Below, piece after piece: positions 3,228 to 19,318 of a stretch of 64,000 nt of DNA; within the stretch, counting starts at the first letter, position 1; every line of letters starts with the position of its first letter. This DNA comes from Deltaproteobacteria bacterium. Its GTDB lineage: Bacteria > SAR324 > NAC60-12. The stretch is taken from the NCBI GenBank assembly GCA_038150265.1, contig JAYOTF010000003.1, positions 1-64,000 on the forward strand, read 5' to 3'. The position numbers and the translations under genes were made by a program. Under the pieces are notes generated by a model, which was not told where the DNA came from, made no database searches, and was given only the letters and a program-made list of their open reading frames with translations.

Positions 3228-5132
3228 TCAGCCTTCGCCGTATTGACCAATGCCACACTCCTGCATGGCCTCGGTGATCTCATCCAGAATCGCCGGGTCG
3301 TCAATGGTCGGAGGAACCGGGACGTCCTGCTCTGCGGCCAGTTGCCGCAGCGTCTTGCGCAGAATCTTGCCAGACCGCGTCTTGGGCAGACGCTTGACGA
3401 TTGCCGAGTGCCGGAAGTAGGCCACGGCGCCAATTTCCCGCCGGATGATGGCGACCAGCTCTTCCTGCATCTCTGCCTGCGTCTTCTCCTGCCCATCCTT
3501 GAGGACCACGAAGCCCACCGGAATCTGTCCCCGGAGTTCATCATCAATTCCCACCACCGCACACTCGGCCACCGAGGCGTGCCCGCCGATCAGCTCTTCC
3601 ATCTCTCCGGTGGAAAGCCGGTGCCCGGCCACGTTGATGACGTCGTCAATGCGGCCCATCACAAACAGGTAGCCGTCTTCGTCCTTCATCCCGCCGTCTC
3701 CGGTCAGGTAGTAGCCCGGGAAGGTTTCGAGGTACCCCTTCCGGAAGCGCTCATTGTTGCCCCAGAGGGTGGGGAGGCAGCTGGGAGGAAGCGGGAGCTT
3801 GACGACGATGTTGCCCGTCTCGCCGGGCTGGCACTCCAGGCCTCCGTCGTCGAGGATCCGGACATCGTAGCCGGGCATCGGCAGGGCGGGAGAACCGGTT
3901 TTCGGAGGATGCGGTTCAATGCCCATCGGGTTGGCACAGATCGCCCACCCGGTTTCGGTTTGCCACCAGTGGTCGATCACCGGCACCTCCAGGATGCTCA
4001 TGAGCCAGTCATAGGTCGGTGGGTCCAGGCGTTCTCCGGCAAGGTAGAGGGTCCGGAGCGAGCTGATGTCGTACTTTGCCAGCTCCCTGGCTTCCGGATC
4101 TTCCTTCTTGACGGCACGGAAGGCGGTGGGAGCCGTAAAGAAGGTGTTGATCCTGTGTTCCTCAATCATCCGCCAGAAGGCGCCGGCATCCGGAGTCTTG
4201 ACGGGCTTTCCTTCATAGACGATGGTGGTGCACCCCTGCAGCAACGGAGCATAGACGATGTAGGAGTGGCCCACCACCCACCCCACATCCGAGGCGGCCC
4301 AGAAGACGTCTCCGGGGTCGGTGTTGTACACCGCCTTCATGCTGTACTTCAGGGCCACCGCGTGCCCGCCGTTGTCTCGGATCACGCCTTTCGGCAACCC
4401 GGTGGTTCCGGAGGTATAAAGCACATAAAGCGGATCGGTCGCATCAACCGGCACCGGATCCACCGGCTTGGCCTGAGCCACCTGTTCCTGCCAGTCGAAA
4501 TCCCGTCCCGCCTGCAGGGAGGCTTCAGCTTGCGGGCGCTGCAGCAGCACCACGGCTTCGGGGGGCGTCTTTGCCAGCTCCAGGGCCTTGTCCACCAGGG
4601 GCTTGTACTCAATGACCCGGTTGACCTCAATTCCGCAGCTTGCGGTCACCAGCGCCTTGGGCTGGGCGTCGTCAATGCGGACCGCCAGCTCATGCGGAGC
4701 AAAGCCTCCAAAGACCACGGAGTGAATGGCGCCGATCCGGGCACAGGCCAGCATGGCCACTACGGCTTCGACCATCATGGGCATGTAGATCACCACCCGA
4801 TCGCCCTTCTCCACGCCGAGCCCCTGAAGCACGCCGGCAAAGGTTGCCACCTCGTGCTGCAGCTCCCGGTAGGTCACCGTCCGCTGGGTATCGGTGACGG
4901 GAGAGTCGTAGATGAGGGCCGGCTGGTCTGCCCGTCCGTTTTCGACATGGTAGTCAACAGCGAGGTAGCAGGTGTTGAGCTTCCCGCCCTTGAACCAGCG
5001 GTAGAAGCCTTCTTCGTCTTGAGAGAGGATGGTGGAGGGGAATTCGTACCAGTCCAGTTGCTCGGCCTGCTGGCGCCAGAAGGCTTCCGGCTGTTCGAGG
5101 GATTGCTGGTACTGGTCCCGATAGGCTGTCAT
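3228..5132 (-). CDS. prpE: Propionyl-CoA synthetase (acyl-CoA synthetase, PrpE-like)
   Basis: [41 protein letters not shown]. Start moved to ATG 5132 (MTAYRDQY), preceded by AGGAG. Confidence 0.88.
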   Translation of the reverse strand: MTAYRDQYQQSLEQPEAFWRQQAEQLDWYEFPSTILSQDEEGFYRWFKGGKLNTCYLAVDYHVENGRADQPALIYDSPVTDTQRTVTYRELQHEVATFAGVLQGLGVEKGDRVVIYMPMMVEAVVAMLACARIGAIHSVVFGGFAPHELAVRIDDAQPKALVTASCGIEVNRVIEYKPLVDKALELAKTPPEAVVLLQRPQAEASLQAGRDFDWQEQVAQAKPVDPVPVDATDPLYVLYTSGTTGLPKGVIRDNGGHAVALKYSMKAVYNTDPGDVFWAASDVGWVVGHSYIVYAPLLQGCTTIVYEGKPVKTPDAGAFWRMIEEHRINTFFTAPTAFRAVKKEDPEARELAKYDISSLRTLYLAGERLDPPTYDWLMSILEVPVIDHWWQTETGWAICANPMGIEPHPPKTGSPALPMPGYDVRILDDGGLECQPGETGNIVVKLPLPPSCLPTLWGNNERFRKGYLETFPGYYLTGDGGMKDEDGYLFVMGRIDDVINVAGHRLSTGEMEELIGGHASVAECAVVGIDDELRGQIPVGFVVLKDGQEKTQAEMQEELVAIIRREIGAVAYFRHSAIVKRLPKTRSGKILRKTLRQLAAEQDVPVPPTIDDPAILDEITEAMQECGIGQYGEG

Positions 5133-5188
5133 GTGTTGTCTCCTGCTTGAAGGGGTAGAGTGGATCACTTAAGGTGCAGACCACGGGG

Positions 5189-5617
5189 TCAGTTCATCAT
5201 CATGTCTCGCATGAAGGGAATCAGGCGCATCACCCAGTCCGGATGCTGCTTCCAGCTGGACATGTCGTAGTTCGGATTGAAGTAGTCCAGAAATCCGACC
5301 AACTCCTGACTGGTGAGGTCTGATGCGGGTCGAAACGCCATGGCCCATCCGGCAAAGTAGCGCTCGTCCAGTTCCCCCTGGTCAAAGACCGAGATGAACT
5401 CGTGACGGGAGTCCTTTTCGATGTGCTGGTAGAGTTCCTGAACCGCCGGTTGGGGGCCTTCAATGAACTGAAAGAAGCGTTCGTTTCCGTAAAAAAGAAC
5501 CCCGGTGATGCCGGCACGTTCATTATGAACCCGAGCCAGGCTGAGCATGGACGCCAGTTCGGCATCTGACATCGGGTGCGTCGAAAAACTGCCGTAGGCC
5601 ATGTAAAACAAGCTCAT
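5189..5617 (-). CDS. Stand-alone BLUF-domain blue-light photoreceptor
   Basis: BLUF pattern: Y-x-S (AYGS), ARVHN..GITGVL, FFQFIEG, IEKDSRH, RYFAGWAM. The photoactive Tyr, Gln and Met are present. Start ATG 5617 or TTG 5629. Confidence 0.9.
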   Translation of the reverse strand: MSLFYMAYGSFSTHPMSDAELASMLSLARVHNERAGITGVLFYGNERFFQFIEGPQPAVQELYQHIEKDSRHEFISVFDQGELDERYFAGWAMAFRPASDLTSQELVGFLDYFNPNYDMSSWKQHPDWVMRLIPFMRDMMMN

Positions 5618-5700
5618 GATGCTTCTCAACTGGACACCTGGCGGGCTGCGGTGTGAGGTCGTGTTTGACAGCGCGACCCGTGAGGGTCACGCCAGGGGCA

Positions 5701-5723
5701 GGGACCGGAGGGTGCCCGGTCCC
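5701..5723 (-). other. Stem-loop just downstream of the phaC stop
   Basis: GGGACCGG-N7-CCGGTCCC, an 8-bp perfect stem with no U-tract. Confidence 0.35.
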
Positions 5724-5732
5724 CTTGGGTGC

Positions 5733-7457
5733 TCAGGGCTCCAGCACGTAGGTGCCGGGAGCCTCCGCCAGGGGCTTGTGCTTGGGGCTTCCCATCTTGG
5801 GAGGCGCCACCATCTTGCCTGCGCGCTCGCTCAGCCAGGCCGTCCAGTCATTCCACCACGTGTCGTTGGTTTTCTGCTGCTTGGACTGCCAGGACTCAGG
5901 AGAGCTTCCGGAATCGCCTTCACCCGCCCAGAAGCTGCGCTTGGGAGGATCAACCGGGGGGTTGACGACTCCGGCGATGTGCCCGGACGTGGAGAGGGAA
6001 AACCGAACCGGCCCCTTGACGAGGTTATTGATCCGGTACACCTGCTTCCACGGGGTGATGTGATCTTCTTCCGCAGCGACGCAGTACAGCGGCTCCGTGA
6101 TGCGGCGAAGGTCAATCGGCTGCCCGGCCAGGGTCACTCCGTCCTTTTCCTTCAGCTTGTTGTGAAGGTAGTACTCACGGAGGTAGAACTTGTGCATCGC
6201 CTCGGGCATGCGCGTGGAGTCATCATTCCAGTAGAGCATGTCGATGGGCGGAGGCTGCTTCCCGTAGAGGTAGTTGTTGATGAAGTAGTGCCAGATCAGG
6301 CCATCCGGACGGAGCATGCGCATGGTTGTGCCCATCTGCTTGCCATCGAGGTAGCCCTGCTCGGCCATGGTCTTCTCGAGGTCCTTGAGGGAATCTTCGT
6401 TGATGAAGACCCCGAGGTCGCCCGGATGCTCAAAGTCCACCAGCGTGGTCAGGAGCGTCCAGTCTTCCACCGGGTTGGCCTTGCGGTTCTTCGGGCTGCT
6501 GTACCAGGCCATGGTGGAGGCCAGCAGGGTGCCGCCAATGCAGTAGCCCACGGCATGGAGCTTCTTGGCACCTGTGATCTGCTGCGCCACCTCGAAGGCC
6601 GTGATGGGGCCTTGCTGGAGGTAGTCATCCATCCCGACGTTCCGCATCTCCTTGGTCGGATTCTTCCAGCTGATGACAAAGGTCGTGAAGCCCTTGGACA
6701 CCAGGTTCCGGATGAAGCTCTTCTTTGGCGCCAGGTCGAGGATGTAGAACTTGTTGATCCACGGCGGGGTGATCACCACCGGCTTCTCATGCACCTCTTC
6801 CGTTGTCGGCGAGTACTGGATCAGCTCCATCAGGTCGTTGCGGAAGACCACCTTTCCCGGGGTGCTGGCCAGGTTCTCTCCCACCTTGAACGGCGACTTG
6901 TCCACCGTCTCCGGCAGGCCATCGCCGCTGCTGATGTCCTTGAGCCAGTTCTGCAGCCCCTGACGCAGGCTCTCGCCCTTGGTCTCCACAAACTGGTTGA
7001 TGGCGTTCGGATTCGTCCAGAAGTAGTTGTCGGGCGAAAGGGCGCTCAGCATTTGCTTCGACCAGAAGGTCGCGTCTCGCTTCACGTTCTCTTCCACCGG
7101 CGCATTCTGGATGTTCTGCTCCATCCACCCGGAATAGGTCTGGTAGTACTCCCGGATCCACTTGAAGTACGGGAGTTTGGACCAGTCCGCCTTGCCTTCG
7201 GCATCCGGAGGCTCCGGCTTCTGGTTGAGGAAGTCCTGCCACACCTGCTGGTTGGTTTCTGTGATGCGTTCCGACCAGGACCGCATCGCTTCCCCGAGCT
7301 CCTGGGGATTCTGGGCCCAGGCTTCAGCCACCTGCTGCAGGGACTTCATGGCGCCCATCGGATCGGCATTGGACGGAGGCGCTCCCATGTTTGAGGCCAT
7401 CTGTCCCATCATTTCCTGAAACCAATCCTGCGGCTGTTTGTCCTTGGAGTCTGCCAT
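5733..7457 (-). CDS. phaC: Polyhydroxyalkanoate synthase, class I
   Basis: PPWINKFYILDL, lipase-like box GYCIGG (catalytic Cys), LYWNDD, EEDHI (Asp), SGHIAG (His), C-terminal APGTYV; 574 aa single subunit. Confidence 0.95.
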   Translation of the reverse strand: MADSKDKQPQDWFQEMMGQMASNMGAPPSNADPMGAMKSLQQVAEAWAQNPQELGEAMRSWSERITETNQQVWQDFLNQKPEPPDAEGKADWSKLPYFKWIREYYQTYSGWMEQNIQNAPVEENVKRDATFWSKQMLSALSPDNYFWTNPNAINQFVETKGESLRQGLQNWLKDISSGDGLPETVDKSPFKVGENLASTPGKVVFRNDLMELIQYSPTTEEVHEKPVVITPPWINKFYILDLAPKKSFIRNLVSKGFTTFVISWKNPTKEMRNVGMDDYLQQGPITAFEVAQQITGAKKLHAVGYCIGGTLLASTMAWYSSPKNRKANPVEDWTLLTTLVDFEHPGDLGVFINEDSLKDLEKTMAEQGYLDGKQMGTTMRMLRPDGLIWHYFINNYLYGKQPPPIDMLYWNDDSTRMPEAMHKFYLREYYLHNKLKEKDGVTLAGQPIDLRRITEPLYCVAAEEDHITPWKQVYRINNLVKGPVRFSLSTSGHIAGVVNPPVDPPKRSFWAGEGDSGSSPESWQSKQQKTNDTWWNDWTAWLSERAGKMVAPPKMGSPKHKPLAEAPGTYVLEP

Positions 7458-7488
7458 TCGGCTCCTCTTGCAAAGGTTGAGAAATCAG

Positions 7489-8247
7489 TTAGATGCGCAG
7501 CCCACCGTCACACTCGATCACCCGACCGGTGAAGTAGTCATTCTCCAGGATGTACATCGCGGAGTGGCTGATCTCGCTCGGATCGCCGAGGCGCTTCAGC
7601 GGCACCTGATCAATGATCTTCTGCTTCACGTCATCCCGGATGGCCGCCACCATTTCGGTGTTGATGTAGCCCGGAGCAATGGCGCCCACACGGATGCCGT
7701 ACCGAGACAGCTCCTTGGCCCAGGTGACCGTCATTTCGGCAACACCGGCCTTGGTTGCCGTGTAGTTCGTCTGCCCCATGTTTCCGCTTCGGGAGATGCT
7801 GGAGATGTTGATGCAGACGCCCGCCTTGTCTTGCTCGAGGAGCTTGCCGAAGAACTCTCGGGCGCAGAGGAAGACGCCGGTGAGGTTCACGTCAATGACG
7901 AGCTGCCAGTTGGCCAGGGACATCTTCTGAACCACCCCATCCTTCTTGCGGACGAGCAGGCCGTCCCGGGTGATGCCGGCATTGTTGATGAGCGCGTCCA
8001 CGGTTCCGAAGTCTGCCACGATGTCAGCGAAGAGCTTCTCGACTTCGTCTTCCTTCGAGACATTGGTGACGTAGGTTTTCACTTCCACGCCCTTGGCAGC
8101 ACAGCTGGCCTGGACATTGGCCAGGTCGTCAGCATTCAGGTCCACCAGCGCCAGCTTGGCACCACGGTCGGCCAGGTCGTTGGCAAAGGCTTTGCCCAGT
8201 CCGCGTCCGCCACCGGTCACAACAATCACTTTATCTTTGATTTCCAT
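7489..8247 (-). CDS. SDR oxidoreductase (FabG-like 3-ketoacyl reductase) in the phaB position; probable acetoacetyl-CoA reductase
   Basis: TGGGRGLG, NNAGITRD, S..YTATK catalytic motif. Start ATG 8247 (MEIKDKV). Lies between phaA and phaC. Confidence 0.85.
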   Translation of the reverse strand: MEIKDKVIVVTGGGRGLGKAFANDLADRGAKLALVDLNADDLANVQASCAAKGVEVKTYVTNVSKEDEVEKLFADIVADFGTVDALINNAGITRDGLLVRKKDGVVQKMSLANWQLVIDVNLTGVFLCAREFFGKLLEQDKAGVCINISSISRSGNMGQTNYTATKAGVAEMTVTWAKELSRYGIRVGAIAPGYINTEMVAAIRDDVKQKIIDQVPLKRLGDPSEISHSAMYILENDYFTGRVIECDGGLRI

Positions 8248-8305
8248 GAGTCTGTTCCATTTGTTGAGTGTGTGAAAGAACCCCTGTTTTGTTGTGTTCC
8301 GTGGC

Positions 8306-9487
8306 TTAGCGCTCCACGGCCAGCGCCACGCCCTGTCCCCCACCAATGCAGAGGGTGGCCACGCCTTTCTTGGCGTCCCGCTTCTGCATCTCGTGCAGGA
8401 GGGTCACCAGAATCCGGGCCCCTGAGGCGCCGATCGGGTGACCAATGGCAATGGCTCCACCGTTGACGTTGACCTTGTCGGTGTCCCACCCGAGGTCCCG
8501 GTTCACTGAAATCGACTGAGCCGCAAAGGCTTCGTTGGACTCCACGAGGTCGAGGTCATTGACGGTCCAGCCAGCCTTGTCGAGGCACTTCCGGGTGGCG
8601 GGAATGGGTCCGGTTCCCATGATGGCCGGGTCCACTCCGGCATTGGAGTAGGCCTTGATCGTCGCCAGTGGCGTCAGGCCGAGTTCCTTGGCCTTGGAGG
8701 CCGACATCACCACCACAGCGGCGGCGCCGTCGTTCAGGCCAGAAGCGTTTCCTGCCGTCACGCTCCCTTCCTTCGAGAAAGCCGGCCGGAGCTTGGACAT
8801 GTCTTCCAGCTGGGCGCCCTTGCGGATGTACTCATCCTTCTGGAACACCACCGGATCGCCCTTGCGCTGAGGAATTTCCACCGGTGTGATCTCCGCATCG
8901 AAGCGTCCGGATTCCTGAGCCGCTTCCGCCTTGTTCTGAGAGCGATAGGCAAACTCATCCTGCTCGTTGCGGTCAATGCCGTACTTGTCAGCAACATTCT
9001 CAGCGGTGGTGCCCATGTGGTAGTTGTTGGTGGCACACCAGAGGCCGTCTTTGATCATGGTGTCCACGAGCTTCCAGTCCCCCATGCGCTGGCCATCTCG
9101 CGAACCCGGGAGGACGTGCGCCGCGCGGCTCATGTTCTCCTGTCCTCCAGCAATCACCACCTCGGCATCGCCACACCGGATCGCTTGAGCGGCCAGGTGG
9201 ACCGCCTTCAGTCCACTTCCGCAGACTTTGTTGATGGTCATGGCGGGGACTTCATGAGGAAGGCCGGCGATCAAGGAAGCCTGACGGGCCGGGTTCTGAC
9301 CGTCTCCTGCGGCCAGCACCTGGCCGAGGATGACTTCGTTGACCTGCTCAGGCTTCAGGTTCGCCTGCTTCAGGAGGCTCCGGATGACCGTTGCTCCTAA
9401 TTCTGCTGCCGGCAGAGAACTCAGGCTGCCGCCGAATTTTCCAACAGCGGTGCGGGTTGCCGCGACAATGACCACTTCTTCTGACAT
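8306..9487 (-). CDS. phaA: Acetyl-CoA C-acetyltransferase (beta-ketothiolase)
   Basis: [29 protein letters not shown]. Start ATG 9487 with AAGGAG RBS. Confidence 0.94.
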
Positions 9488-9535
9488 TTGCTCCTTGTTG
9501 AGATGCCTCCGGAGTCCGGAGAGGGGGGTAAAATG

Positions 9536-9571
9536 AAAAAGGCGCCCCACAGACGAGTCCGGAGGCGCCTT
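9536..9571 (-). terminator. Intrinsic terminator after acs
   Basis: Minus strand reads AAGGCGCCTCCGGAC-TC-GTCTGTGGGGCGCCTT then TTTCATTTT, immediately after the acs stop. Confidence 0.7.
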
Positions 9572-9577
9572 CTTCCA

Positions 9578-11512
9578 TCAGGTTGCTGGGCGGTTGGAGA
9601 TGAGGTCTTCGACCACCGAGGGATCGGCTAGCGTCGAGGTGTCTCCCAGGCTTCCCAGTTCGTTTTCCGCAATCTTGCGCAAAATCCGCCGCATGATCTT
9701 GCCGGAACGGGTCTTGGGCAGCCCCGGCGCCCACTGCATGACATCAATCGTCGCAATGGGGCCAATTTCAGTCCGGACCAGCTTGACGAGTTCCTTCTTG
9801 AGGTCATCGCTCGGCTCCACCCCGGTGTTGAGGGTGACGTAGGCATAGATGCCCTGGCCCTTGATTTCGTGAGGGTAGCCCACCACAGCAGCTTCCGCGA
9901 CACTCTCGTGCAGCACCAGTGCTGACTCGACTTCCGCGGTTCCCATCCGGTGTCCGGACACGTTGATGACGTCGTCCACACGGCCGGTGATCCAGTAGTA
10001 GCCGTCTGCGTCGCGGCGGCATCCGTCACCGGTGAAGTAGTACCCCTTGTAGGTACTGAAGTAGGTCTGGTAGAAGCGTTCCTGGTCCCCATAGACGGTC
10101 CGCATCTGCCCTGGCCAGGACTGCTTGATGCAGAGGTTCCCTTCGGTCGCGCCTTCCAGCTCGTTGCCTTCCGCATCGACCAGCACCGGCTGCACGCCAA
10201 AGAACGGGCGGGTTGCCGAACCCGGCTTCAGCGGAGTCGCTCCCGGAAGCGGTGTGATGAGGATGCCGCCGGTTTCTGTCTGCCACCAGGTGTCAACAAT
10301 CGGGCAGTTGCCCTTTCCCACAACGTTGTAGTACCAGAGCCAGGCTTCCGGATTGATCGGCTCTCCCACGGAACCCAGGACCCGCAGACTGGAGAGGTCT
10401 CGCTTGTTGACCAGTTCGTCTCCTTCCTTGGCGATCGCGCGGATGGCGGTCGGGGCGGTGTAGAAGATATTGACCTGGTGCTTGTCGATCACATCCCAGA
10501 AGCGGCCATAGTCCGGGTAGTTCGGAATGCCCTCGAACATCAACGTGGTGGCCCCGTTGGCAAGCGGGCCATAGACAATGTAGCTGTGCCCAGTCACCCA
10601 GCCGACGTCGGCGGTGCACCAGTAGATGTCGCCCTCCTGATAGTCGAAGACGTACTGATGCGTGATGGAGGCATAAAGCAGGTAGCCTCCGGACGTGTGA
10701 AGCACGCCCTTGGGCTTTCCGGTGGAACCGGAGGTGTAGAGGATGAAGAGCGGATCTTCGGCATCGTGGGCTTCTGCCGGGCAATCGGCTGACGCCTGCG
10801 CCATTTCTTCATGATACCAGCAGTCACGCTCGGCATCCCACTCCACCGGATCACCTCCACGCTGCACCACGACCACGGCCTCAATGCTGGGTGTGGACTC
10901 ACACGCCTTGTCCGCATTGGTCTTCAGCGGCACCTTGCGTCCTCCCCGGAGGCTCTGGTCTGCCGTGACCAGCACCTTGCAGGCAGAGTCATTGATGCGG
11001 TCCTTGAGGGCGTCCGGAGAGAAGCCGCCAAAGACGATGGAGTGAACGGCCCCCACTCGGGCACAGGCCAGCATGGCCACGGCCGCTTCCGGAATCATCG
11101 GCATGTACAGGCACACGCGGTCGCCCTTCTCCACTCCCTTCGACTTGAGGACATTGGAGAACTTGCAGACTTCCTCGTGCAACTCCCGGTAGGTGATCTT
11201 GCGGTCCAGATTCGGGTCGTCGCTTTCCCAGATGATCGCCACCTGATCGCCACGCGTCTCCAGGTGACGGTCCAGGCAGTTGTAGGCCACGTTCAGCTTC
11301 CCGCCGTCAAACCAGCGGATGTGCGCCTTGGTGTAGTCCACGTCCATCACCTTGTCCCAGGGCTTCTCCCAGTGGAGGCGCTCCTCAGCCTGCTTGCCCC
11401 AGAAGCCCTCCGGGTCCTTGACCGACTCCTCGTACATCTTGAGGTAGGTCTCGTTGTCAATCAAAGCCTTGCCGTCAAACGACGCCGGGACGTCAAAAAT
11501 CTGCTCGCTCAT
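9578..11512 (-). CDS. acs: Acetyl-CoA synthetase (AMP-forming)
   Basis: [44 protein letters not shown]. Start ATG 11512 with AGGAG RBS. Confidence 0.96.
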
Positions 11513-11561
11513 TGTTTTCTCCTGTTGGGAAAGTGCCTTGGGAGTCACGCGTAAAGGGCTG

Positions 11562-11655: not shown

Positions 11656-13356
11656 TCAGTGAGCCTGTGCCGTTCCGGCTCCTTTGGGAATCCGGATGTT
11701 GTCAATCATCTCCTGAACGTCTTCCGGAACTTCCTTGGTAAAGAGGGAAACCCCATAGGCCACCACGAAGTTCACAATCATGCCAATGGTTCCAATTCCT
11801 TCTGGGGAGGTGGAGAACCACCAGTTTTCCGCCGTATTGGCCTCTGGGTTCATGAACTTGAAGTAGACGATGTACCCGGTGGTGAGGGCAATGCCAGCGA
11901 TCATTCCAGCAATCGCGCCTTCCTTCGTGGTGCGTTTGCTGAAGATGCCCAAGATGATAACCGGGAAGAAGGAGGACGCCGCAAGTCCAAACGCAAAGGC
12001 GACCACCTGCGCCACAAATCCGGGTGGGTTGATTCCGAAGTATCCGGCAATGACCACCGCGGCGCCCGCGGCACCCCGCGCGTACCACAACTCGGCCTGC
12101 TCGCTCAGGTCCGGATTCACCGTCCGCTTCATCAAGTCATGCGAGATGGAGGTGGAGATCACCAGCAGCAACCCGGCAGCCGTTGAAAGGGCTGCGGCAA
12201 GGCCTCCTGCGGCAACGAGTCCAATCACCCACGAAGGCAGACCGGCAATCTCCGGGTTGGCCAGCACCATGATGTCCCGGTCCACCGTCAGCTCGTTCGC
12301 CAAGCCGTCCGGCGCCTGGGGCCCCCGGTACTGAATGACCCCGTCGCCGTTCCTGTCCTCCCACTTGATCAGGCCGGTTTGCTCCCAGGTCTTCACCCAC
12401 TGTGGCGCCTGCGTCTCATAGACCTTGCCGTTGACCGTCTCGATCATGTTGTAACGGGCAAAGGCCCCAATGGCCGGAGCGGTGGTGTAGAGCAGGGCAA
12501 TGAAGATCAGGGCCCATCCGGCCGAGGTCCGGGCGTCGGCAACTTTCGGGACGGTGAAGAAGCGGATGATGACGTGCGGCAGCCCGGCGGTTCCCACCAT
12601 CAGCGCAACGGTGATCATGAACAGGTCGGTCATCGACTTCGAGTTCGACGTGTACTCGGCAAAGCCCAGCTCCCGGTGAAGGCCGTTGAGCTTGTCGATC
12701 AGCCCGCCTTCACTCAACGCCGAGATGAACCCCAGCTGCGGCAAGAAGCTGTCGGTGAGCTGGATGGAGAGGAAAAACGCGGGGACCATGTAGGCAAACA
12801 TCATCACGCAGTACTGCGCCACCTGCGTGTAGGTGATGCCCTTCATGCCCCCAAGAGTGGCATAGAAGAACACCAGGATCATGCCGATCACCACCCCAGT
12901 CTCGACGCTGGTCTCCAGAAAACGGGAGAAGACCACCCCCACGCCCCGCATCTGCCCGGCAACGTAGGTGAACGAAACGAAGATGGCACAGATCAGCGCA
13001 ACCGTCCGGGCGGCACTGGAGTAGTACCGGGTGCCAACAAAATCCGGGACCGTGAACTGGCCAAACTTGCGCAGGTAAGGCGCCAGCAGCAACGCCAGCA
13101 GCACGTATCCGCCCGTCCAGCCCATCAGGTACATCGAACCCGTGTACCCCAGGAACGAGATCAGGCCGGCCATGGAAATGTAAGACGCCGCTGACATCCA
13201 ATCGGCGGCCGTCGCCATGCCGTTTGCAATCGGAGGCACCCCGCCTCCGGCCACATAAAACTCACTCGTGGACCCGGCACGGGACCAGATGGCAATGGCA
13301 ATGTAGACGCCGAAGGTGACAAAGACGAAGATGTAAGTCCAGGTTTGGATATCCAT
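11656..13356 (-). CDS. actP: Cation/acetate symporter ActP-like (sodium:solute symporter family)
   Basis: About 13 hydrophobic helices; NGMATAADWMSAAS, GGMKGITYTQVAQY, GTAGLPHV, AAALSTAAGLL; adjacent to acs. Confidence 0.85.
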   Translation of the reverse strand: MDIQTWTYIFVFVTFGVYIAIAIWSRAGSTSEFYVAGGGVPPIANGMATAADWMSAASYISMAGLISFLGYTGSMYLMGWTGGYVLLALLLAPYLRKFGQFTVPDFVGTRYYSSAARTVALICAIFVSFTYVAGQMRGVGVVFSRFLETSVETGVVIGMILVFFYATLGGMKGITYTQVAQYCVMMFAYMVPAFFLSIQLTDSFLPQLGFISALSEGGLIDKLNGLHRELGFAEYTSNSKSMTDLFMITVALMVGTAGLPHVIIRFFTVPKVADARTSAGWALIFIALLYTTAPAIGAFARYNMIETVNGKVYETQAPQWVKTWEQTGLIKWEDRNGDGVIQYRGPQAPDGLANELTVDRDIMVLANPEIAGLPSWVIGLVAAGGLAAALSTAAGLLLVISTSISHDLMKRTVNPDLSEQAELWYARGAAGAAVVIAGYFGINPPGFVAQVVAFAFGLAASSFFPVIILGIFSKRTTKEGAIAGMIAGIALTTGYIVYFKFMNPEANTAENWWFSTSPEGIGTIGMIVNFVVAYGVSLFTKEVPEDVQEMIDNIRIPKGAGTAQAH

Positions 13357-13412: not shown

Positions 13413-13649
13413 TCAGTCCTCCGCAACATCAAACTCCCGGTCCAGCTTGTTCATCTGAGCGACGTACACCCAGATCAAGACCACGAACACATAAATGGAC
13501 CCCTGCTGCGCAAACCAGAATCCCAGCTTTCCCAACCCGGGGGCAAAGAGAATGCCGGCTCCGTAAGAGCCCAGGAACCAGATGATGAGCAGGTTCCTCA
13601 TGATGCCGACGTTGCGTCGCCAGTATTCTTGCAATCGTGCTTTATCCAT
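13413..13649 (-). CDS. Small membrane partner of ActP (DUF4212/DUF485-like)
   Basis: YWRRN...IWF...LGFWFAQQGSIYVFV...MNKLDREFDV; directly upstream of actP. Confidence 0.85.
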   Translation of the reverse strand: MDKARLQEYWRRNVGIMRNLLIIWFLGSYGAGILFAPGLGKLGFWFAQQGSIYVFVVLIWVYVAQMNKLDREFDVAED

Positions 13650-13856
13650 AGGCCTCCGGATTGAGGGTAGAGAAGTGAGGGGGATTTCAGGATGCCCACC
13701 TTAGATGAGAGGACGGGCTTTTATATCCGAAATCAGGCTCATAATCAATAATTATCTTGATCATCTGCCCTTTTCTGATCTAAAAAGCACTCCCTTTGTG
13801 AGGAATCTCTTTTGATAATTTTGTCCCCTGGCCAGCAGGGAGCGCGGAGAAGCAGC

Positions 13857-14069
13857 ATGCGATTTCAACGCTTGACGGGAATGAGTTTAACCGGAGGGCT
13901 GGTGTTAAATTATCCGGTAATTTCCGTATTCAGCCACCTCGACTTTTCCGGAACCTTCCCGCCGCTCTACCTGTTTCTCTTCGGAGTCTGGGGCGTCTTG
14001 ATTGGGCTGACGGCTTTTCTGATGGAGCGACATGGCCGCGTGGCGGCGCCACCTGAGGACGGCTCATGA
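13857..14069 (+). CDS. Small two-helix membrane protein coupled to the SLC5 kinase
   Basis: MRFQRLTGMSLTGGLVLNYPVISVF...PPLYLFLFGVWGVLIGL; GGAG upstream; ATGA overlap with the kinase start. Confidence 0.7.
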   Translation: MRFQRLTGMSLTGGLVLNYPVISVFSHLDFSGTFPPLYLFLFGVWGVLIGLTAFLMERHGRVAAPPEDGS

Positions 14070-16846
14070 TGGCCAACGCCTGGCTCCTGCTGACGGCCTT
14101 TGTGTACCTGGCCTTGCTTTTTGGCATCGCCTACCGGACCGACCGGTTCCGGGAAAGTGGCAAGAGCTGGATCAACAACGCCAACGTCTACTCGCTGTCC
14201 CTGGCCGTCTACTGCACGGCGTGGACGTTTTATGGAAGCGTGGGGCTCGCGGCCAGCCAGGGCTTCATGTTCCTCCCCATCTACCTCGGCCCCACCTTGC
14301 TGGCGCTGCTCTGGAGTGGGGTGCTCCGGAAGATCATCCGCATTGCCAAGCGCTACGCCCTCACCTCGCTGGCGGACTTCCTGTCGGTCCGTTACGGCAA
14401 CGCGACCTTCCTCGGTGGGCTGGTCACCTTTGTCGCGTTTGTCGGCATCCTCCCCTACATCTCGCTGCAGATCAAGGCCATCGGTTTTGGGTTTGAGCTG
14501 TTGGTGGAAGCGCCCGACCAACTTTCCACAGGCAGCACCTCTGACTCGACCACCTTCTTTGTCACCCTCGTTCTGGTCGCCTTCACCATTCTGTTCGGAG
14601 TCCGGCACCTGGATGCCACCGAACGGCACGAGGGCATGGTGGCCGCCATTGCCTTCGAGTCGCTCATCAAGCTTGTGGCCTTTCTGGCCTGTGGGGTCTT
14701 TGTGGTCTATGGGGTGTACAACGGCTTTGCGGACCTCTTTCAGAAGGCATCGGCCTTTCCGGAGCTGGCCCAGCTCTGGACACTCGGACACGACGGCGAG
14801 TACGAGGAGTGGTTCTTCCTGAACCTGTTGGCCATGCTGGCGATCCTCCTCCTGCCTCGGCAGTTTCAGGTGGCTGTTGTGGAGAACGTCAATGAGCGGC
14901 ACGTGGACCGAGCCTCATGGCTCTTTCCGCTTTACCTCCTGCTCATCAACATCTTTGTGCTGCCCATTGCCCTGGCCGGGCGCCTTGAGTTTCCAGACGG
15001 GCAGATTGATGCCGACACCTTCATGCTGACGCTTCCGGTGCACCTGGAGAATGGCTGGATCGCCTGGCTCGTCTTCCTCGGAGGCCTTTCGGCAGCCACC
15101 AGCATGATCGTCGTGGAATCGGTCGCGCTGAGCAACATGATCTGCAACTCGCTGGTGATGCCGATCCTCATCCGGATCCCCTTCGTCAACCTCAAGGAGG
15201 GCAAGGGCCTGAACCGGGTCCTACTCTTCATCCGGCGCGCCAGCGTGGCGCTCGTGCTCTTCACCAGCTACGCCTACTTCCAGACCGTCAGCAGCGCCTA
15301 CTCCCTGGTCTCCATTGGGCTGATCTCCTTCCTCGCCGTGGCCCAGTTTGCCCCCGCCTTGCTTGGGGGACTCTACTGGCGAAACGGCAACCGCACCGGC
15401 GCTCTGCTTGGCCTCAGCACCGGCTTTGCCGTCTGGGCCTACACCCTCCCGTTTGGTCAGATGATCCAGGCCGGCTGGTTCGAGGCCTCCCTGCTCACCG
15501 AAGGTCCGGGCGGCATCGACTGGCTCCGGCCAATCGCCCTGTTCGGATTTGAAGGCGCCAAGCCCATTGTGCAGGCCACCTTCTGGAGCCTCCTGCTCAA
15601 CACCCTCGCTTACGTCGGAGGGTCGCTCCTGACCACGCCCTCGCGGCTGGAACGCCAGCAGGCCCGGCTGTTTGTCGGCGCCATGAGCTTTTCGGAACAC
15701 AGCAACAGCCTCCAGACCTGGCAGGGCACGGCCACGCCCATCCAGCTTCAGCGCCTGCTGGAACGCTTCCTGGGCAAGGACCACACACGGCAGGCCCTCG
15801 CACGCTATGCCACCTCTCACCACACCAGCTTTGCCGACCTCCTTGCCGCGGATGTTGCCGAAGCCGGCCTGATTCAGCACACCGAAAAGCTCCTTTCCGG
15901 AAGCATTGGCTCCGTCTCCGCCCGCATCATGGTGGCCTCGGTTGTTGAAGAGGAGCCCCTCGGCATGGACGCCGTCATGGACCTGCTTGATGCCACCCAG
16001 CAAGCCATTGCCTACGGCCAGCAGCTTGAAGAGAAGTCGAAGGAGCTTCAGAAGGTCACCGATGACCTTCAAAGCGCCAACCTCCGGCTTCAGGAGCTGG
16101 ACCGGCTCAAGGACGACTTCATCTCCACCATCACCCACGAGCTCCGGACCCCCCTCACCTCCATCCGCGCCTTCTCGGAAATCCTGCACGACACCCCCGG
16201 ACTTCCGGAAGAGAAGCAGCGTGAATTCCTGGGCATCATCATCAAGGAAAGCGAACGCCTCACCCGCCTCATCGGCCAGATCCTCGACTTTGAGAAACTC
16301 GAGTCGGGCAAGATGGACTGGAACCCCCAACCCCTTGAGCTGCAAGCCCTCTGCGAAGATGCCCTCGCCTCGCTGGGACAGCTGCTGCGCGACCAGCAGA
16401 TCCGGGTGGAGACCCACTTTCCAGAAACCGCTGTGCAGGTGGAAGGAGACTACGATCGCCTCCTGCAGGTTCTCCTGAACCTCCTCTCCAATGCGGTCAA
16501 ATTTTGTCCCAAACAGGCCGGACGCATTGAGGTTTCCGTGAAAAGGCTTGAAGAACATGCCGAAATCCGTGTAAAAGACAACGGAATCGGCATTCCTGAA
16601 AAGGAGAGAAACGCGGTTTTCGAAAAATTCCGTCAGGTGCAAAGCACCAATGAGGGAAAGCCCGCGGGGACCGGCCTGGGCCTGTCGATCAGCAAGAACA
16701 TTGTGGAGCACCACGGCGGTACCATTGGCGTGGCCCCCGGAAGCGAATACGGCGCCATCTTCTTCTTCACCATCCCGCTGCTTCCGGAAACTCCCGCTCT
16801 TCCCAACCTGCAAGGAGGTTATGTCCCAGAAGATCCTGATCGTTGA
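14066..16846 (+). CDS. SLC5 (sodium:solute symporter)-STAC-histidine kinase, CrbS-like, without PAS or receiver domain
   Basis: N-terminal YSLSLAVYCTAWTFYGSVG...LPRQFQV...GGLSAATSM transporter-like domain; H-box ITHELRTPL; NLLSNAVKF, DNGIGI, GTGLGL. Confidence 0.9.
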   Translation: MMANAWLLLTAFVYLALLFGIAYRTDRFRESGKSWINNANVYSLSLAVYCTAWTFYGSVGLAASQGFMFLPIYLGPTLLALLWSGVLRKIIRIAKRYALTSLADFLSVRYGNATFLGGLVTFVAFVGILPYISLQIKAIGFGFELLVEAPDQLSTGSTSDSTTFFVTLVLVAFTILFGVRHLDATERHEGMVAAIAFESLIKLVAFLACGVFVVYGVYNGFADLFQKASAFPELAQLWTLGHDGEYEEWFFLNLLAMLAILLLPRQFQVAVVENVNERHVDRASWLFPLYLLLINIFVLPIALAGRLEFPDGQIDADTFMLTLPVHLENGWIAWLVFLGGLSAATSMIVVESVALSNMICNSLVMPILIRIPFVNLKEGKGLNRVLLFIRRASVALVLFTSYAYFQTVSSAYSLVSIGLISFLAVAQFAPALLGGLYWRNGNRTGALLGLSTGFAVWAYTLPFGQMIQAGWFEASLLTEGPGGIDWLRPIALFGFEGAKPIVQATFWSLLLNTLAYVGGSLLTTPSRLERQQARLFVGAMSFSEHSNSLQTWQGTATPIQLQRLLERFLGKDHTRQALARYATSHHTSFADLLAADVAEAGLIQHTEKLLSGSIGSVSARIMVASVVEEEPLGMDAVMDLLDATQQAIAYGQQLEEKSKELQKVTDDLQSANLRLQELDRLKDDFISTITHELRTPLTSIRAFSEILHDTPGLPEEKQREFLGIIIKESERLTRLIGQILDFEKLESGKMDWNPQPLELQALCEDALASLGQLLRDQQIRVETHFPETAVQVEGDYDRLLQVLLNLLSNAVKFCPKQAGRIEVSVKRLEEHAEIRVKDNGIGIPEKERNAVFEKFRQVQSTNEGKPAGTGLGLSISKNIVEHHGGTIGVAPGSEYGAIFFFTIPLLPETPALPNLQGGYVPEDPDR

Positions 16847-17204
16847 AGACGACCCTGCCATTGTCGTCTCCCTGGAATTCCTCATGGGACAGCATGGCTA
16901 TGACGTCCGGGTGGCCCAGAACGGAGAAGATGGCGAAAACCTGGCCCGGGAGTTCCGTCCGGACCTGATCCTGCTCGATGTCAACCTGCCCCTGAAGTCC
17001 GGATTCGAAATCTGCCAGCAGCTGCGGTCTGAGCCCGACTTTGACCGCACCTACATCCTCCTCCTCACCGCCAAGGGCCGGGAGGTGGACATTGAAAAAG
17101 GCACGGCGCTGGGAGCCGATGCTTACGTCACCAAGCCCTTCTCCACTCGCGAACTCATCCCCCAGGTTCAGCGCCTCCTGACTGAGCCCCGATCTCCCTC
17201 ATGA
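16821..17204 (+). CDS. Single-domain response regulator (receiver only)
   Basis: MSQKILIVEDD...LLDVNLP...LLTAKG...YVTKPF; 127 aa with no output domain; GGAGG RBS before ATG 16821. Confidence 0.9.
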   Translation: MSQKILIVEDDPAIVVSLEFLMGQHGYDVRVAQNGEDGENLAREFRPDLILLDVNLPLKSGFEICQQLRSEPDFDRTYILLLTAKGREVDIEKGTALGADAYVTKPFSTRELIPQVQRLLTEPRSPS

Positions 17205-19318
17205 AACGGCAGCAACGCATCCTCCTCCTCTGGTTTGGCAGCGTCCTGCTCCTCATCGCCTTTGCGGCAGTGCCCTTCCTCTACCTTCAGGCGCAGCTCA
17301 CTCCCGAGCAGCACCGCCTCATCTTCGAGTGGCTGGGCGATTCCCGCTACCTGCTGGCGGTTCCGGTGGTGGGACTGCTGGCGCTGGTCATCTTCGGGTC
17401 CCGCTGGCTCCTGGAGCAACTCTGGAGCCCACTGGGGCAACTGAGCGAATCGCTCCAAACCGCGCTGGAAAATCCTTCCGGCCCGCCCATTCACGTCACG
17501 GGCGCTCCTGCTCTGGTGACGCTGGGGACGCTGCTGAACCGTCAGGTTGAACGGACCGCTCACCTGCAGGCCCAGGTCGAGGCTCAAATTGCCGAAGCCA
17601 AGGAAACGCTTGAGCGCGAGAAGAACGTGCTGGCAGCGCTCGTGGAAGAGCTCCGGGAAGGCGTGGTCGTTTGCAACAAGGAGGGGCTCGTCCTGCTCTA
17701 CAACCGGGCCGCCCGGCGCCTCCTCAGCGAAGAGGCAACCACGCCACTTGGACTCGGACGCTCCATCAAGGAGGTCATGCAGACCCCGCTGCTCGACTAC
17801 ACCCTGAGCGAGTTGCAGGACCGGCAGAGTTCCGGAAGCGCCAACCTCACCCAGCCCTTTTCCTTCTGGCAGGGCGCCCGGATGCTCCGGGTGCAGACCC
17901 TCGGCATCCTCGACCCCAACCGAGAGCTGAGCGGCTTCGTCTTTGTCTGTGAAGACCTCTCTCCCCGTCCGGAATCACACCCCTTCAGCGTCTTTGAGCA
18001 GCAACAGAAGGAAAAACGCCGGACCAGCATTGCCAACGTCCGGGCCTCTGTTGAGATGATCCTCGACTATCCGGACATTCCTCCAGAGAAACAGCGCGTG
18101 TTTCTCGAGGCCATTCACAGCAACGCCGTTCAGCTTTCAGAGCTGCTGGAGGTCACCCCGTCGCAGTCGGCAGAACAACTCCGGCAGCACTGCCCGCTGG
18201 AGCCCGTTCCGGCTCAGGAATGGCTGTCGGGCTTTCTGCGAGGCCACAAGGGCGCTCCCGAGCTGGTGCCCCACACCGAAGGCTCCCTGGCTGATTGTGG
18301 GCTTCGGGTAAACGCCTACCTCTTCAACCGGATGCTGGAGTTTTTCTTTGGGCAGCTGCAGCGGGTGCTCGAGGTTGCCACCCTCCGCTACGACCTCCAG
18401 CAGCAGGGGCGCTTTGTGCTCCTTGACTTCAACTGGCAGGGCAAGGAGCTCCCGGCCAACGCGCTCCGGCAGCTGCTGGAAGAGCGGGTGGAGAGCAGCG
18501 ACGGCACCCCCCTGACGATCTCGGAAATCCTTCAGCGGCATGATGCCGAGGTCTGGTTTCAGGGAGGCGCTGACAGCTCGGAACACGGCCTGCGCTTCTT
18601 CCTCCCTGCCGAGTTCCAGCTGGCGCCCCGTGATCAGGCGCACCTTTCCCTGGAAAGCCGCCCCGTCTTTTACGACTTTGACCTCTTCAACAAGACCTCC
18701 CTGCCTCCGGAACTCAAGGACGTCCCCCTCCGGGAACTCCGCTACACTGTCTTTGATACGGAAACCACCGGGCTCAACCCAAGCGCCGGGGACGAGATCA
18801 TCTCCATTGGCGCCTACCGCATTGTCAACGGGAAGCTCCTGGAAAACGAAACCTTCCAGCAGCTCATTGACCCTCAGCGTGCCATCTCCGACGCCTCCAT
18901 TGCCGTCCATGGCATCACACCGGAACAGGTGGCCGGGCAACCGCTGATCACCGAGGTCCTCCCCCGCTTCCAGCGCTTTACCGAGGGTTCCGTCCTGGTG
19001 GCCCACAATGCCGCCTTCGACCTGCGCTTCCTCGAGCTGAAGGAGCGCGCCAGCAAGGTGCGGTTTACGCAACCGGTGCTGGACACCCTGCTGCTCTCTG
19101 CGGTCGCTCAGCCCAAGCAGAACCTTCACAGCCTGGATGAGATTGCCCAGCGCTTTGGCATCAGGGTCGAAGACCGACACTCCGCCATGGGCGACGCCTG
19201 GGTGACGGCCCAGGTCTTCCTCCGTTTGGTTCCCCTGCTTGAGGAAAAAGGCATCCAGACCCTGGAGCAGGCGCAAAATGCGGCCAAAGAGACCTACTAC
19301 GCCAAGCTGAAGTACTGA
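17201..19318 (+). CDS. Membrane-anchored PAS / degenerate histidine-kinase / DEDDh 3'-5' exonuclease (DnaQ-like) fusion
   Basis: Two N-terminal TM helices, coiled coil, PAS-like EGVVVCNKEGLVLLYNRAA, His-less DHp-like segment, then ExoI VFDTETTG, ExoII AHNAAFD, ExoIII HSAMGDA. ATGA overlap with the receiver gene. Confidence 0.85.
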   Translation: MKRQQRILLLWFGSVLLLIAFAAVPFLYLQAQLTPEQHRLIFEWLGDSRYLLAVPVVGLLALVIFGSRWLLEQLWSPLGQLSESLQTALENPSGPPIHVTGAPALVTLGTLLNRQVERTAHLQAQVEAQIAEAKETLEREKNVLAALVEELREGVVVCNKEGLVLLYNRAARRLLSEEATTPLGLGRSIKEVMQTPLLDYTLSELQDRQSSGSANLTQPFSFWQGARMLRVQTLGILDPNRELSGFVFVCEDLSPRPESHPFSVFEQQQKEKRRTSIANVRASVEMILDYPDIPPEKQRVFLEAIHSNAVQLSELLEVTPSQSAEQLRQHCPLEPVPAQEWLSGFLRGHKGAPELVPHTEGSLADCGLRVNAYLFNRMLEFFFGQLQRVLEVATLRYDLQQQGRFVLLDFNWQGKELPANALRQLLEERVESSDGTPLTISEILQRHDAEVWFQGGADSSEHGLRFFLPAEFQLAPRDQAHLSLESRPVFYDFDLFNKTSLPPELKDVPLRELRYTVFDTETTGLNPSAGDEIISIGAYRIVNGKLLENETFQQLIDPQRAISDASIAVHGITPEQVAGQPLITEVLPRFQRFTEGSVLVAHNAAFDLRFLELKERASKVRFTQPVLDTLLLSAVAQPKQNLHSLDEIAQRFGIRVEDRHSAMGDAWVTAQVFLRLVPLLEEKGIQTLEQAQNAAKETYYAKLKY

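Follow-up and report, generated by a model that had tools for sequence, protein, structure and literature searches.

A transporter-fused kinase, a lone receiver and a membrane pseudokinase–exonuclease in a SAR324 bacterium: a candidate sensory pathway with a nuclease-fold output

What does a two-component pathway act upon when no DNA-binding domain is found among its proteins? The question is raised by four overlapping genes on contig JAYOTF010000003.1 of the deltaproteobacterial assembly GCA_038150265.1 (SAR324; NAC60-12), of which positions 1 to 64,000 of the forward strand, hereafter the window, were analysed. These genes encode a small membrane protein, a sensor kinase fused to an SLC5 transporter, a single-domain receiver, and a membrane protein in which a dead histidine-kinase core is fused to a DEDDh exonuclease-fold domain (Table 1). 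The answer that we favour, with a probability somewhat under one half (about 0.45), is that the operon supplies the phosphorelay-gated eraser in a switch that controls the uptake of small carboxylates by reversible nucleotidylation.

Anatomy, gene order and co-loss of the relay

The original prediction described these genes as overlapping and devoid of DNA-binding domains, and both statements hold. ATGA overlaps join the small open reading frame (ORF) to the kinase and the receiver to the fusion, the kinase and receiver genes overlap by 26 nt, and a Pfam scan of the four proteins found no DNA-binding domain; the small ORF begins just to the left of position 14066, where the operon had been thought to start. 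In the fusion, hydrophobic segments (residues 7–25 and 51–69) are followed by a PAS domain (145–252), a weak HisKA match (274–317) and an RNase_T match (517–673). A profile of 11 fusion homologues matches VicK (PDB 4i5s) over positions 52–486, and WalK and VicK head the Foldseek list for its AlphaFold model, whose moderate confidence (predicted local distance difference test, pLDDT, 68; 40–60 in the exonuclease part) confines it to fold assignment. The histidine site of the core is occupied by E271, and among 216 homologues it is H in 4 and E in 130, with the GxGLG and NxxxNA motifs present in none; 212 of the 216 retain all five catalytic residues of the DEDDh domain (D519, E521, D607, H660 and D665). 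These matches and losses bear out both the pseudokinase call and the intact DEDDh site that had been read from the sequence. Judged by its motifs, the kinase core is dead throughout the family while the hydrolase is preserved, and the protein combines a histidine-kinase fold with the absence of phospho-histidine and ATP motifs, as in DivL-like proteins. The receiver retains D53 and K105 in 81 of 81 homologues.

The arrangement is widespread. A scan of a genome collection confirmed at least 559 loci from at least hundreds of species, and gene order was counted in the best 80 of them, mostly Betaproteobacteria and Desulfobacterales, using only loci with enough flanking sequence. Carriers include Accumulibacter, Zoogloea, Thauera, Cupriavidus, Desulfobacterales and Paracoccus, in which the protein bears the database label 'DNA polymerase III epsilon'; the middle region of the fusion alone retrieved 404 cluster representatives at E values up to 1e-10. 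The receiver lies directly upstream of the fusion in 65 of 71 scorable loci, so the operon arrangement is not a product of chance. An SLC5 kinase is found near the fusion in 47/58 loci, a DUF294 protein in 38/55 and a solute:sodium symporter (SSS) in 40/55. In Paracoccus denitrificans PD1222 (PDEN_RS25395–25415), DUF294, small ORF, kinase, receiver and fusion occur in a single gene run.

Natural short forms of the fusion provide the best evidence on the role of the dead core. Five genomes (G015, G021, G035, G064 and G066) encode a form of 440–525 residues that lacks the pseudokinase core and keeps the transmembrane segments and the exonuclease, with a PAS domain that is clear in three and degenerate in two; all five adjoin DUF294. 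The SLC5 kinase and its cognate receiver are absent from 5/5 of these genomes (the best receiver match in G064 is 44% identical and lies elsewhere in the genome), and both are present in 11 of 12 full-form genomes. A further short form, in G031, is split across contigs and was left out of this count. Because the core is lost together with the kinase and receiver, it probably exists to receive the receiver, in a docking role like that of DivL. The membrane pseudo-histidine kinase DivL of Caulobacter crescentus is described in available excerpts of PMC5361649 as reading DivK~P, and the fusion would likewise be a PAS-containing membrane pseudokinase reading a lone receiver that a different kinase has phosphorylated. 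In DivL the histidine site is Tyr and the signal goes to CckA, whereas the fusion has Glu, has lost the ATP-lid motifs family-wide and carries its own enzyme. The dead helix retains R+3, R+10, A+11 and E+14, like the cognate kinases, and a profile of the whole dead core ranks the operon's own kinase first among the kinases of the genome (53 versus 38 bits). In a tree of 21 fusions, two of the short forms (G015 and G021) group with the full-length protein of G005 (support 98), and a single origin of the short forms was rejected (p-AU, from the approximately unbiased test, 0.0009; quick tree); as the tree is unrooted, the other short forms are not assignable as losses.

The transporter part of the kinase bears on what may be sensed. 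Its N-terminal 660 residues match PDB 10ed_A, with a 22-sequence profile spanning positions 6–627 (E 1.7e-100), which confirms the proposed SLC5–STAC identity; Pfam SSF itself has no match in the kinase. We take 10ed_A to be the SLC5–STAC structure of CbrA on two grounds: PMC13022988 mentions the code, and the numbering of K196 agrees. K202 of the kinase aligns with CbrA K196 at the Na2 site, the lysine being present in 22/22 aligned sequences and the motif in 51/58 homologues, and available excerpts of PMC13022988 report that K196 fills the Na2 site of CbrA, a proton-coupled transceptor. The Na2-site lysine therefore makes sensing of Na+, one of the stimuli in the original prediction, unlikely; by analogy with CbrA, solute coupling is probably of the proton type. 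The kinase boxes are intact (H691, N805, G1 838 and G2 868), with the H box conserved in 58/58 homologues, the N box in 55/58 and the G boxes in 58/58, and the spacing from STAC motif to H box is 76 residues in 48/58. The small ORF belongs to a conserved family (50 homologues aligned; no Pfam family matched) and is present in 43/58 loci with at least 4 kb upstream. By its position and size it may be the equivalent of CbrX, reported as a two-helix subunit of CbrA in the same excerpts (PMC13022988).

The operon thus resembles the CbrX–CbrA/CbrB and CrbS(MxtR)/CrbR(ErdR) systems of Pseudomonas and Vibrio in its SLC5–STAC kinase with a dimerization–phosphotransfer and catalytic–ATP-binding (DHp–CA) core, in the overlapping upstream two-helix peptide, in the Na2-site lysine shared with CbrA, and in having acs and carboxylate symporters in its neighbourhood. 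It differs from them in that a Pfam scan found neither a PAS domain nor a C-terminal receiver in the kinase (compare the parts of PMC7918813 and PMC5715377 that describe CbrA and CrbS), and in that the partner is a bare receiver rather than a sigma-54 (CbrB) or LuxR-type (CrbR) activator, the apparent output being an enzyme. In Pseudomonas, moreover, CrbS/R controls the exonuclease and nucleotidyltransferase genes at the level of transcription, whereas in the system described here the connection seems to be made by protein contact. Another SLC5 kinase with an enzymatic output was seen at L244:1929-6050, where a 1374-residue SLC5–STAC hybrid kinase ends in a receiver and a SpoIIE phosphatase domain.

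The DUF294 partner and the proposed chemistry

The DUF294 nucleotidyltransferase often found beside exonucleases at actP loci is, as had been noted, absent from the window; the source genome carries one such gene (CBS-CBS-DUF294-DUF294_C) in mid-contig on contig C9, with no exonuclease adjoining. Among 63 genomes of the phylum, each at least 85% complete and all of them kin, so that counts are not independent, 17 have the exonuclease family, 18 have DUF294_C, 16 have both and 44 neither. Two further DUF294 genomes (G025 and G040) have an adjoining standalone DEDDh gene, so 18/18 DUF294 genomes have a DEDDh partner. Taken with the neighbourhood counts above, the presence of DUF294 in 16/17 exonuclease-bearing genomes upholds the suggested linkage. 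Exonuclease and DUF294 lie on different contigs in 8 of the 16 genomes that have both; the pairing survives loss of synteny. On C9 the DUF294 gene (L125, G000:C9:56110-61522) is located between a presumed purA-like gene and a homocysteine S-methyltransferase-like gene, the latter followed by a presumed pyruvate-kinase-like gene.

Viewed from the DUF294 side, in the best 80 of 605 metagenome loci, a DEDDh neighbour accompanies 26 of 53 non-Cache proteins, or 17 of the 22 with room on both sides. The other 27 are Cache-type receptors, of which 8 carry a PHP phosphoesterase (6 of them fused) and 0 have a DEDDh neighbour; no locus in this sample has PHP and DEDDh together. A phosphoesterase of either fold therefore often accompanies the DUF294 transferase. 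No DEDDh–DUF294 fusion was found among the top 120 DUF294 homologues (265–846 residues) or in these 80 loci. The Cache-type proteins (27/80; L141, L144, L163, L165, L178, L193, L195 and others) are membrane receptors of the order transmembrane segment–sCache_2–PAS–CBS–DUF294, often near SSS transporters and in some cases with the PHP phosphoesterase at the N terminus or in an adjoining gene, and are a one-component counterpart of the operon system.

The predicted model of the C9 protein (pLDDT 91) has the N- and C-terminal domains of GlnE, and DrrA, as its best matches (Z 27.2, 25.4 and 24.9), and the motif GSxxRxEQT...DQDN (G214, S215, D226, D228) is invariant in 20/20 DUF294 sequences. With a Pol-beta fold, GS and DxD motifs and a helical domain, the model points to a GlnE-like enzyme. 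The likeness would extend to the GlnE/GlnD pair, in that a writer with the GlnE/DrrA fold is coupled to a phosphodiesterase eraser; the eraser of GlnD is an HD domain. VC1291, which is reported in PMC3509428 to co-purify with EIIA-Glc and which we presume to be the DUF294 protein, was not used as evidence.

The mechanism that we propose has four steps. The SLC5–STAC kinase with its small subunit would sense or move a small solute, probably with proton coupling, and phosphorylate the lone receiver. In the manner of DivK~P and DivL, the receiver would then dock on the dead DHp–CA core of the fusion and gate the DEDDh domain, a step that the co-loss makes likely. The DEDDh domain would work against the CBS–DUF294 nucleotidyltransferase on C9; their functional coupling is very likely, and for the chemistry we see about even odds. 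The DUF294 enzyme, whose CBS pair probably lets adenine nucleotides gate it, would add a nucleoside monophosphate (NMP) to a protein hydroxyl, and the DEDDh domain would hydrolyse the NMP ester to free 5'-NMP, the geometry of the bond being that of a 3'-terminal nucleotide. Finally, the marked protein may be the neighbouring symporter or small subunit, active in its unmarked form, with Acs as second candidate, though this choice of target is tentative. Still more tentatively, we propose a two-component pathway without a transcription factor, in which the receiver switches a pseudokinase-gated DEDDh de-nucleotidylase that, with DUF294, toggles the symporter.

DEDDh sites release 5'-NMP from a hydroxyl. 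According to the available text of PMC7694242 and PMC4822814, proofreading exonucleases also cleave the aryl ester pNP-TMP (p-nitrophenyl-TMP), and RNase Z is reported as a precedent of a nuclease acting as a deAMPylase in excerpts of PMC12663964. Physiological data come from Pseudomonas putida KT2440 (PP_0354/PP_0353; Pflu5625), where a cNMP–CBS–DUF294 protein and a standalone RNase_T-family exonuclease share with the system described here the two catalytic domains and the association with SSS carboxylate transporters; the systems differ in that the operon's exonuclease is a membrane pseudokinase fusion of a separate clade, and in that the C9 nucleotidyltransferase lacks the cNMP domain and sits on another contig. 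As reported in the accessible parts of PMC9927547 and 10.64898/2026.09.07.749794, loss of PP_0353, the exonuclease, harms growth on pyruvate like loss of actP-I or yjcH, and deletion of PP_0354, the nucleotidyltransferase, spares it. This is the pattern predicted for an eraser of an inhibitory mark on a transporter. Because of the pyruvate pattern, the release of 5'-NMP by DEDDh sites, the hydrolysis of pNP-TMP and the RNase Z precedent, we favour a protein de-nucleotidylase. The original prediction proposed a relay to a phosphodiesterase acting after transcription, with three possible outputs; gene order and co-loss speak for the relay, and among the outputs (removal of a nucleotidyl mark from a protein, degradation of an oligonucleotide messenger, trimming of RNA) the first is the best supported.

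Each part of this scheme has a precedent, in CbrA/CrbS, DivL, GlnE and PP_0353/PP_0354, and a DEDDh deAMPylase, if true, would be new chemistry for the fold. The full-text literature searched contained no description of a DEDDh enzyme as a protein de-nucleotidylase and no assay of DUF294 transferring NMP to protein, and recent Pseudomonas work declares, in the part available, that the function of the DUF294/exonuclease partners is unresolved (10.64898/2026.09.07.749794). Neither the operon nor the pseudokinase–exonuclease fusion is described in that literature, whose coverage is thin for subscription papers, the STAC paper of Korycinski 2015 among them. Were the scheme correct, DUF294 and the mis-annotated 'epsilon subunits' beside it would gain a function, DEDDh would join the deAMPylase folds, and a secondary transporter would be under covalent nucleotide control. 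It would also add a post-translational layer to carboxylate uptake and give bacteria a second example of a receiver-reading pseudokinase. The module offers a direct test of the function of the DUF294 nucleotidyltransferase and its exonuclease partner.

Counter-evidence and competing explanations

Besides the kinship of the phylum genomes, a number of observations weigh against an eraser arm gated by the relay. Its activity, modification and target are inferred for every member of the family, and the data from Pseudomonas were obtained with a standalone exonuclease of a sister clade. One genome (G063, 88% complete) encodes the full form yet has neither kinase nor receiver, its pseudokinase core being degenerate (69 bits versus 190–193 for G058 and G059, likewise outside the training set); another (G058, 88% complete) has the exonuclease with no DUF294 detected; and two (G019 and G044) keep the kinase and receiver, with a HisKA_2/LuxR branch, and have neither exonuclease nor DUF294. 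In the wider loci, Acs is found in just 16/55, and 17/55 have no DUF294 nearby. The docking helix alone ranks the cognate kinase third of the 35 kinases in the genome. DUF294 itself may not be a writer, its best structural match being the adenylyl-removing domain of GlnE. By the queries used, 19 of the 27 Cache-type loci had neither PHP nor DEDDh, and in 10 of these 19 there was room on either flank; the PHP partner resembles the pAp (3'-phosphoadenosine 5'-phosphate) phosphatase and RNase AM families, whose substrates are small nucleotides and RNA. No residue of the symporter tracks the presence of DUF294 (44 versus 5 sequences). On propionate, deletions of PP_0353 and PP_0354 both lower growth in the available part of 10.64898/2026.09.07.749794, a result not expected of a simple on/off switch.

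The same relay could instead control a pair that makes and breaks a small nucleotide signal (an oligonucleotide, a pAp-like molecule or an adduct of NMP with a small molecule), which acts allosterically on uptake or activation enzymes. Such a signal would explain the co-occurrence without a protein target; the PHP partners and the propionate growth defects of both Pseudomonas deletions favour it, as does a weak match of the DEDDh profile to small-substrate nucleases, such as an ancestral diDNase. We nevertheless regard it as unlikely, for the DUF294 fold comes closest to GlnE and DrrA, both protein AMPylases, with other nucleotidyltransferases matching far less well, and the hydrolase remains anchored in the membrane even in its short forms, which better fits a membrane substrate.

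A second possibility is that the signal from kinase and receiver goes mainly to a transcriptional branch (HisKA_2 with REC-PAS-LuxR, or another regulator), the fusion being co-transcribed with them and either uncontrolled by the receiver or a mere sink for it. In six genomes of the same family a sensor-less HisKA_2 kinase adjoins the SLC5 kinase or the receiver, five of them also having a REC-PAS-LuxR gene, and the arrangement in G019 and G044 indicates that the relay can serve a transcriptional branch in some relatives. A DNA-binding response regulator is nearby in 6/80 of the wider loci, and, according to the accessible text of PMC7918813, every SLC5 kinase characterised passes its signal to a DNA-binding regulator. 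The nearest HisKA_2/LuxR pair of the source genome, however, has its own PAS–PAS sensor, is 37–42% identical and lies on contig C12; no such pair occurs in the best 80 of the at least 559 wider loci, and the pseudokinase core is lost exactly where the kinase and receiver are missing. We therefore consider a mainly transcriptional role quite unlikely for this operon. The original prediction would have given way to a DNA-binding output or to a linkage that other genomes do not conserve: the former finds partial support in the six relatives, two of them without the exonuclease, and the latter is contradicted by the conserved gene order. Examples of the HisKA_2 and REC-PAS-LuxR genes, the former possibly a second reader of the receiver, are at L110:10322-12090, L112:463-2236, L106:14447-16620, L120 and L243. 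In another genome of the same family a receiver domain is fused to LpxC (L101:7554-8873).

A signal-gated RNA or DNA exonuclease that trims specific transcripts (of transporters or glyoxylate-shunt genes, for instance), with DUF294 tailing or marking the same nucleic acids, would fit the best family matches of the DEDDh domain, which are PolC/DnaQ/DinG-type nucleases. In the parts available, PMC9927547 speculates on mRNA decay for the exonuclease and 10.1101/072470 on a role in symporter expression, the co-fit gene of the latter being labelled 'COG2905 (RNAse T domain protein)', a name that could denote either partner. For the transferase, the Pseudomonas authors speculate on protein modification, and in the text available they do not pair it with the exonuclease. 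Transcript trimming is improbable to us: the fusion has no RNA-binding domain in Pfam, there are no RNA-tailing enzymes among the top matches listed for the DUF294 model, and loss of the nuclease lowers, rather than raises, uptake-dependent growth.

The DEDDh domain matches PF00929 with 125 bits (cut-off 24), falls below the cut-offs of the DnaQ equivalogs (TIGR01406 117 versus 222.7; PRK05711 113 versus 196 bits) and has no match in 20 of 31 genomes of the same family. In a quick tree of exonucleases, a branch with support 99 separates the fused domains from PolC and the housekeeping DEDDh proteins, and most standalone exonucleases adjacent to DUF294 form a separate group; the two alphaproteobacterial rows marked 'short' in it represent divergent forms, and the L161 row is a fusion that has been truncated. 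That the protein is a replicative proofreading (epsilon) subunit or a housekeeping nuclease is thus highly improbable, as originally judged, even though homologues are so labelled and the fusion is the sole PF00929/TIGR00573 match in a 97.8% complete genome whose DnaE PHP domain appears to have lost several metal ligands, since the domain is patchily distributed, a PF00929 gene was absent from all five family genomes tested (92–99% complete), three family genomes without the fusion share the degenerate DnaE PHP, and the protein combines its own clade and low equivalog scores with a membrane anchor of two segments. The degenerate PHP domain, for which we assumed the metal-ligand positions, was seen in the source genome (G000:C25:27567-28082) and four others of the same family (L247–L250).

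Genomic setting and variants

Coordinates of the operon and of its divergent neighbours are collected in Table 1.

Table 1. Positions in the window of the operon genes, fusion domains and divergently transcribed neighbours
Feature	Positions	Strand	Remarks
Small membrane ORF, 70 residues	13857-14069	+	Likely ATG start; probable CbrX-like accessory subunit of the transporter-kinase
SLC5-STAC-HisKA-HATPase_c sensor kinase, 926 residues	14066-16846	+	HisKA 682-748, HATPase_c 794-905 (Pfam)
Single-domain receiver, 127 residues	16821-17204	+	Response_reg is the sole Pfam match; D10/D53/K105 intact
Fusion, 705 residues	17201-19318	+	Two transmembrane segments, HAMP-like/coiled coil, PAS, dead DHp-CA kinase core, DEDDh 3'-5' exonuclease-fold domain
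Pseudo-histidine-kinase core of fusion	17963-18634	+	Residues about 255-478; E271 at the His site; proposed receiver docking site
DEDDh domain of fusion	18749-19219	+	D519, E521, D607, H660, D665
DUF4212 small symporter subunit	13413-13649	-	TIGR03647; divergent operon
VC_2705-family solute:sodium symporter, not ActP	11656-13356	-	TIGR03648; candidate regulated target (putative role)
Acetyl-CoA synthetase, acs	9578-11548	-	TIGR02188 above cut-off; alternative candidate target
Divergent intergenic region	13650-13856	.	24-nt AT-rich block shared unchanged by three genomes of the genus

The divergent genes had been read as DUF4212-actP-acs. DUF4212 and acs stand, and actP does not: the symporter scores 860 bits with TIGR03648 (VC_2705 family; cut-off 321) and falls under the cut-offs of the ActP models (TIGR02711 135 versus 1099; PRK09395 179 versus 750). 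Acetate as the ligand is a guess from acs alone, because the characterised DUF4212 transporters are tied to the use of lactate and D-alanine in available excerpts of 10.1101/072470. A candidate threonine column of the symporter (38/44 versus 0/5) was rejected, as it is in a membrane helix and follows lineage. Residues common to the exonucleases associated with DUF294 were left aside, the set compared being narrow. Downstream of acs (window 3228-11548) are genes for a thiolase, a short-chain reductase, PhaC, a BLUF protein and a PrpE-like ligase; this set of genes suggests that imported carboxylates may feed polyhydroxyalkanoate storage.

In the divergent intergenic region, no sigma-70 site was called; the counts of the promoter and terminator scan were at chance level. 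The 24-nt block contains a short inverted repeat, ATCAA-N8-TTGAT, a possible regulator site.

Variants of the module were also seen. In alphaproteobacterial loci, a protein of 168–174 residues with no Pfam family lies between DUF294 and the exonuclease (L234:6050-6556 and L235:6452-6976); the 562-residue form of the exonuclease in these variants has no upstream receiver, and the 650-residue form keeps it. Two copies of the module or of its parts, some beside different transporters, are found at L037, L056 and L067 and in G008, G012 and G017.

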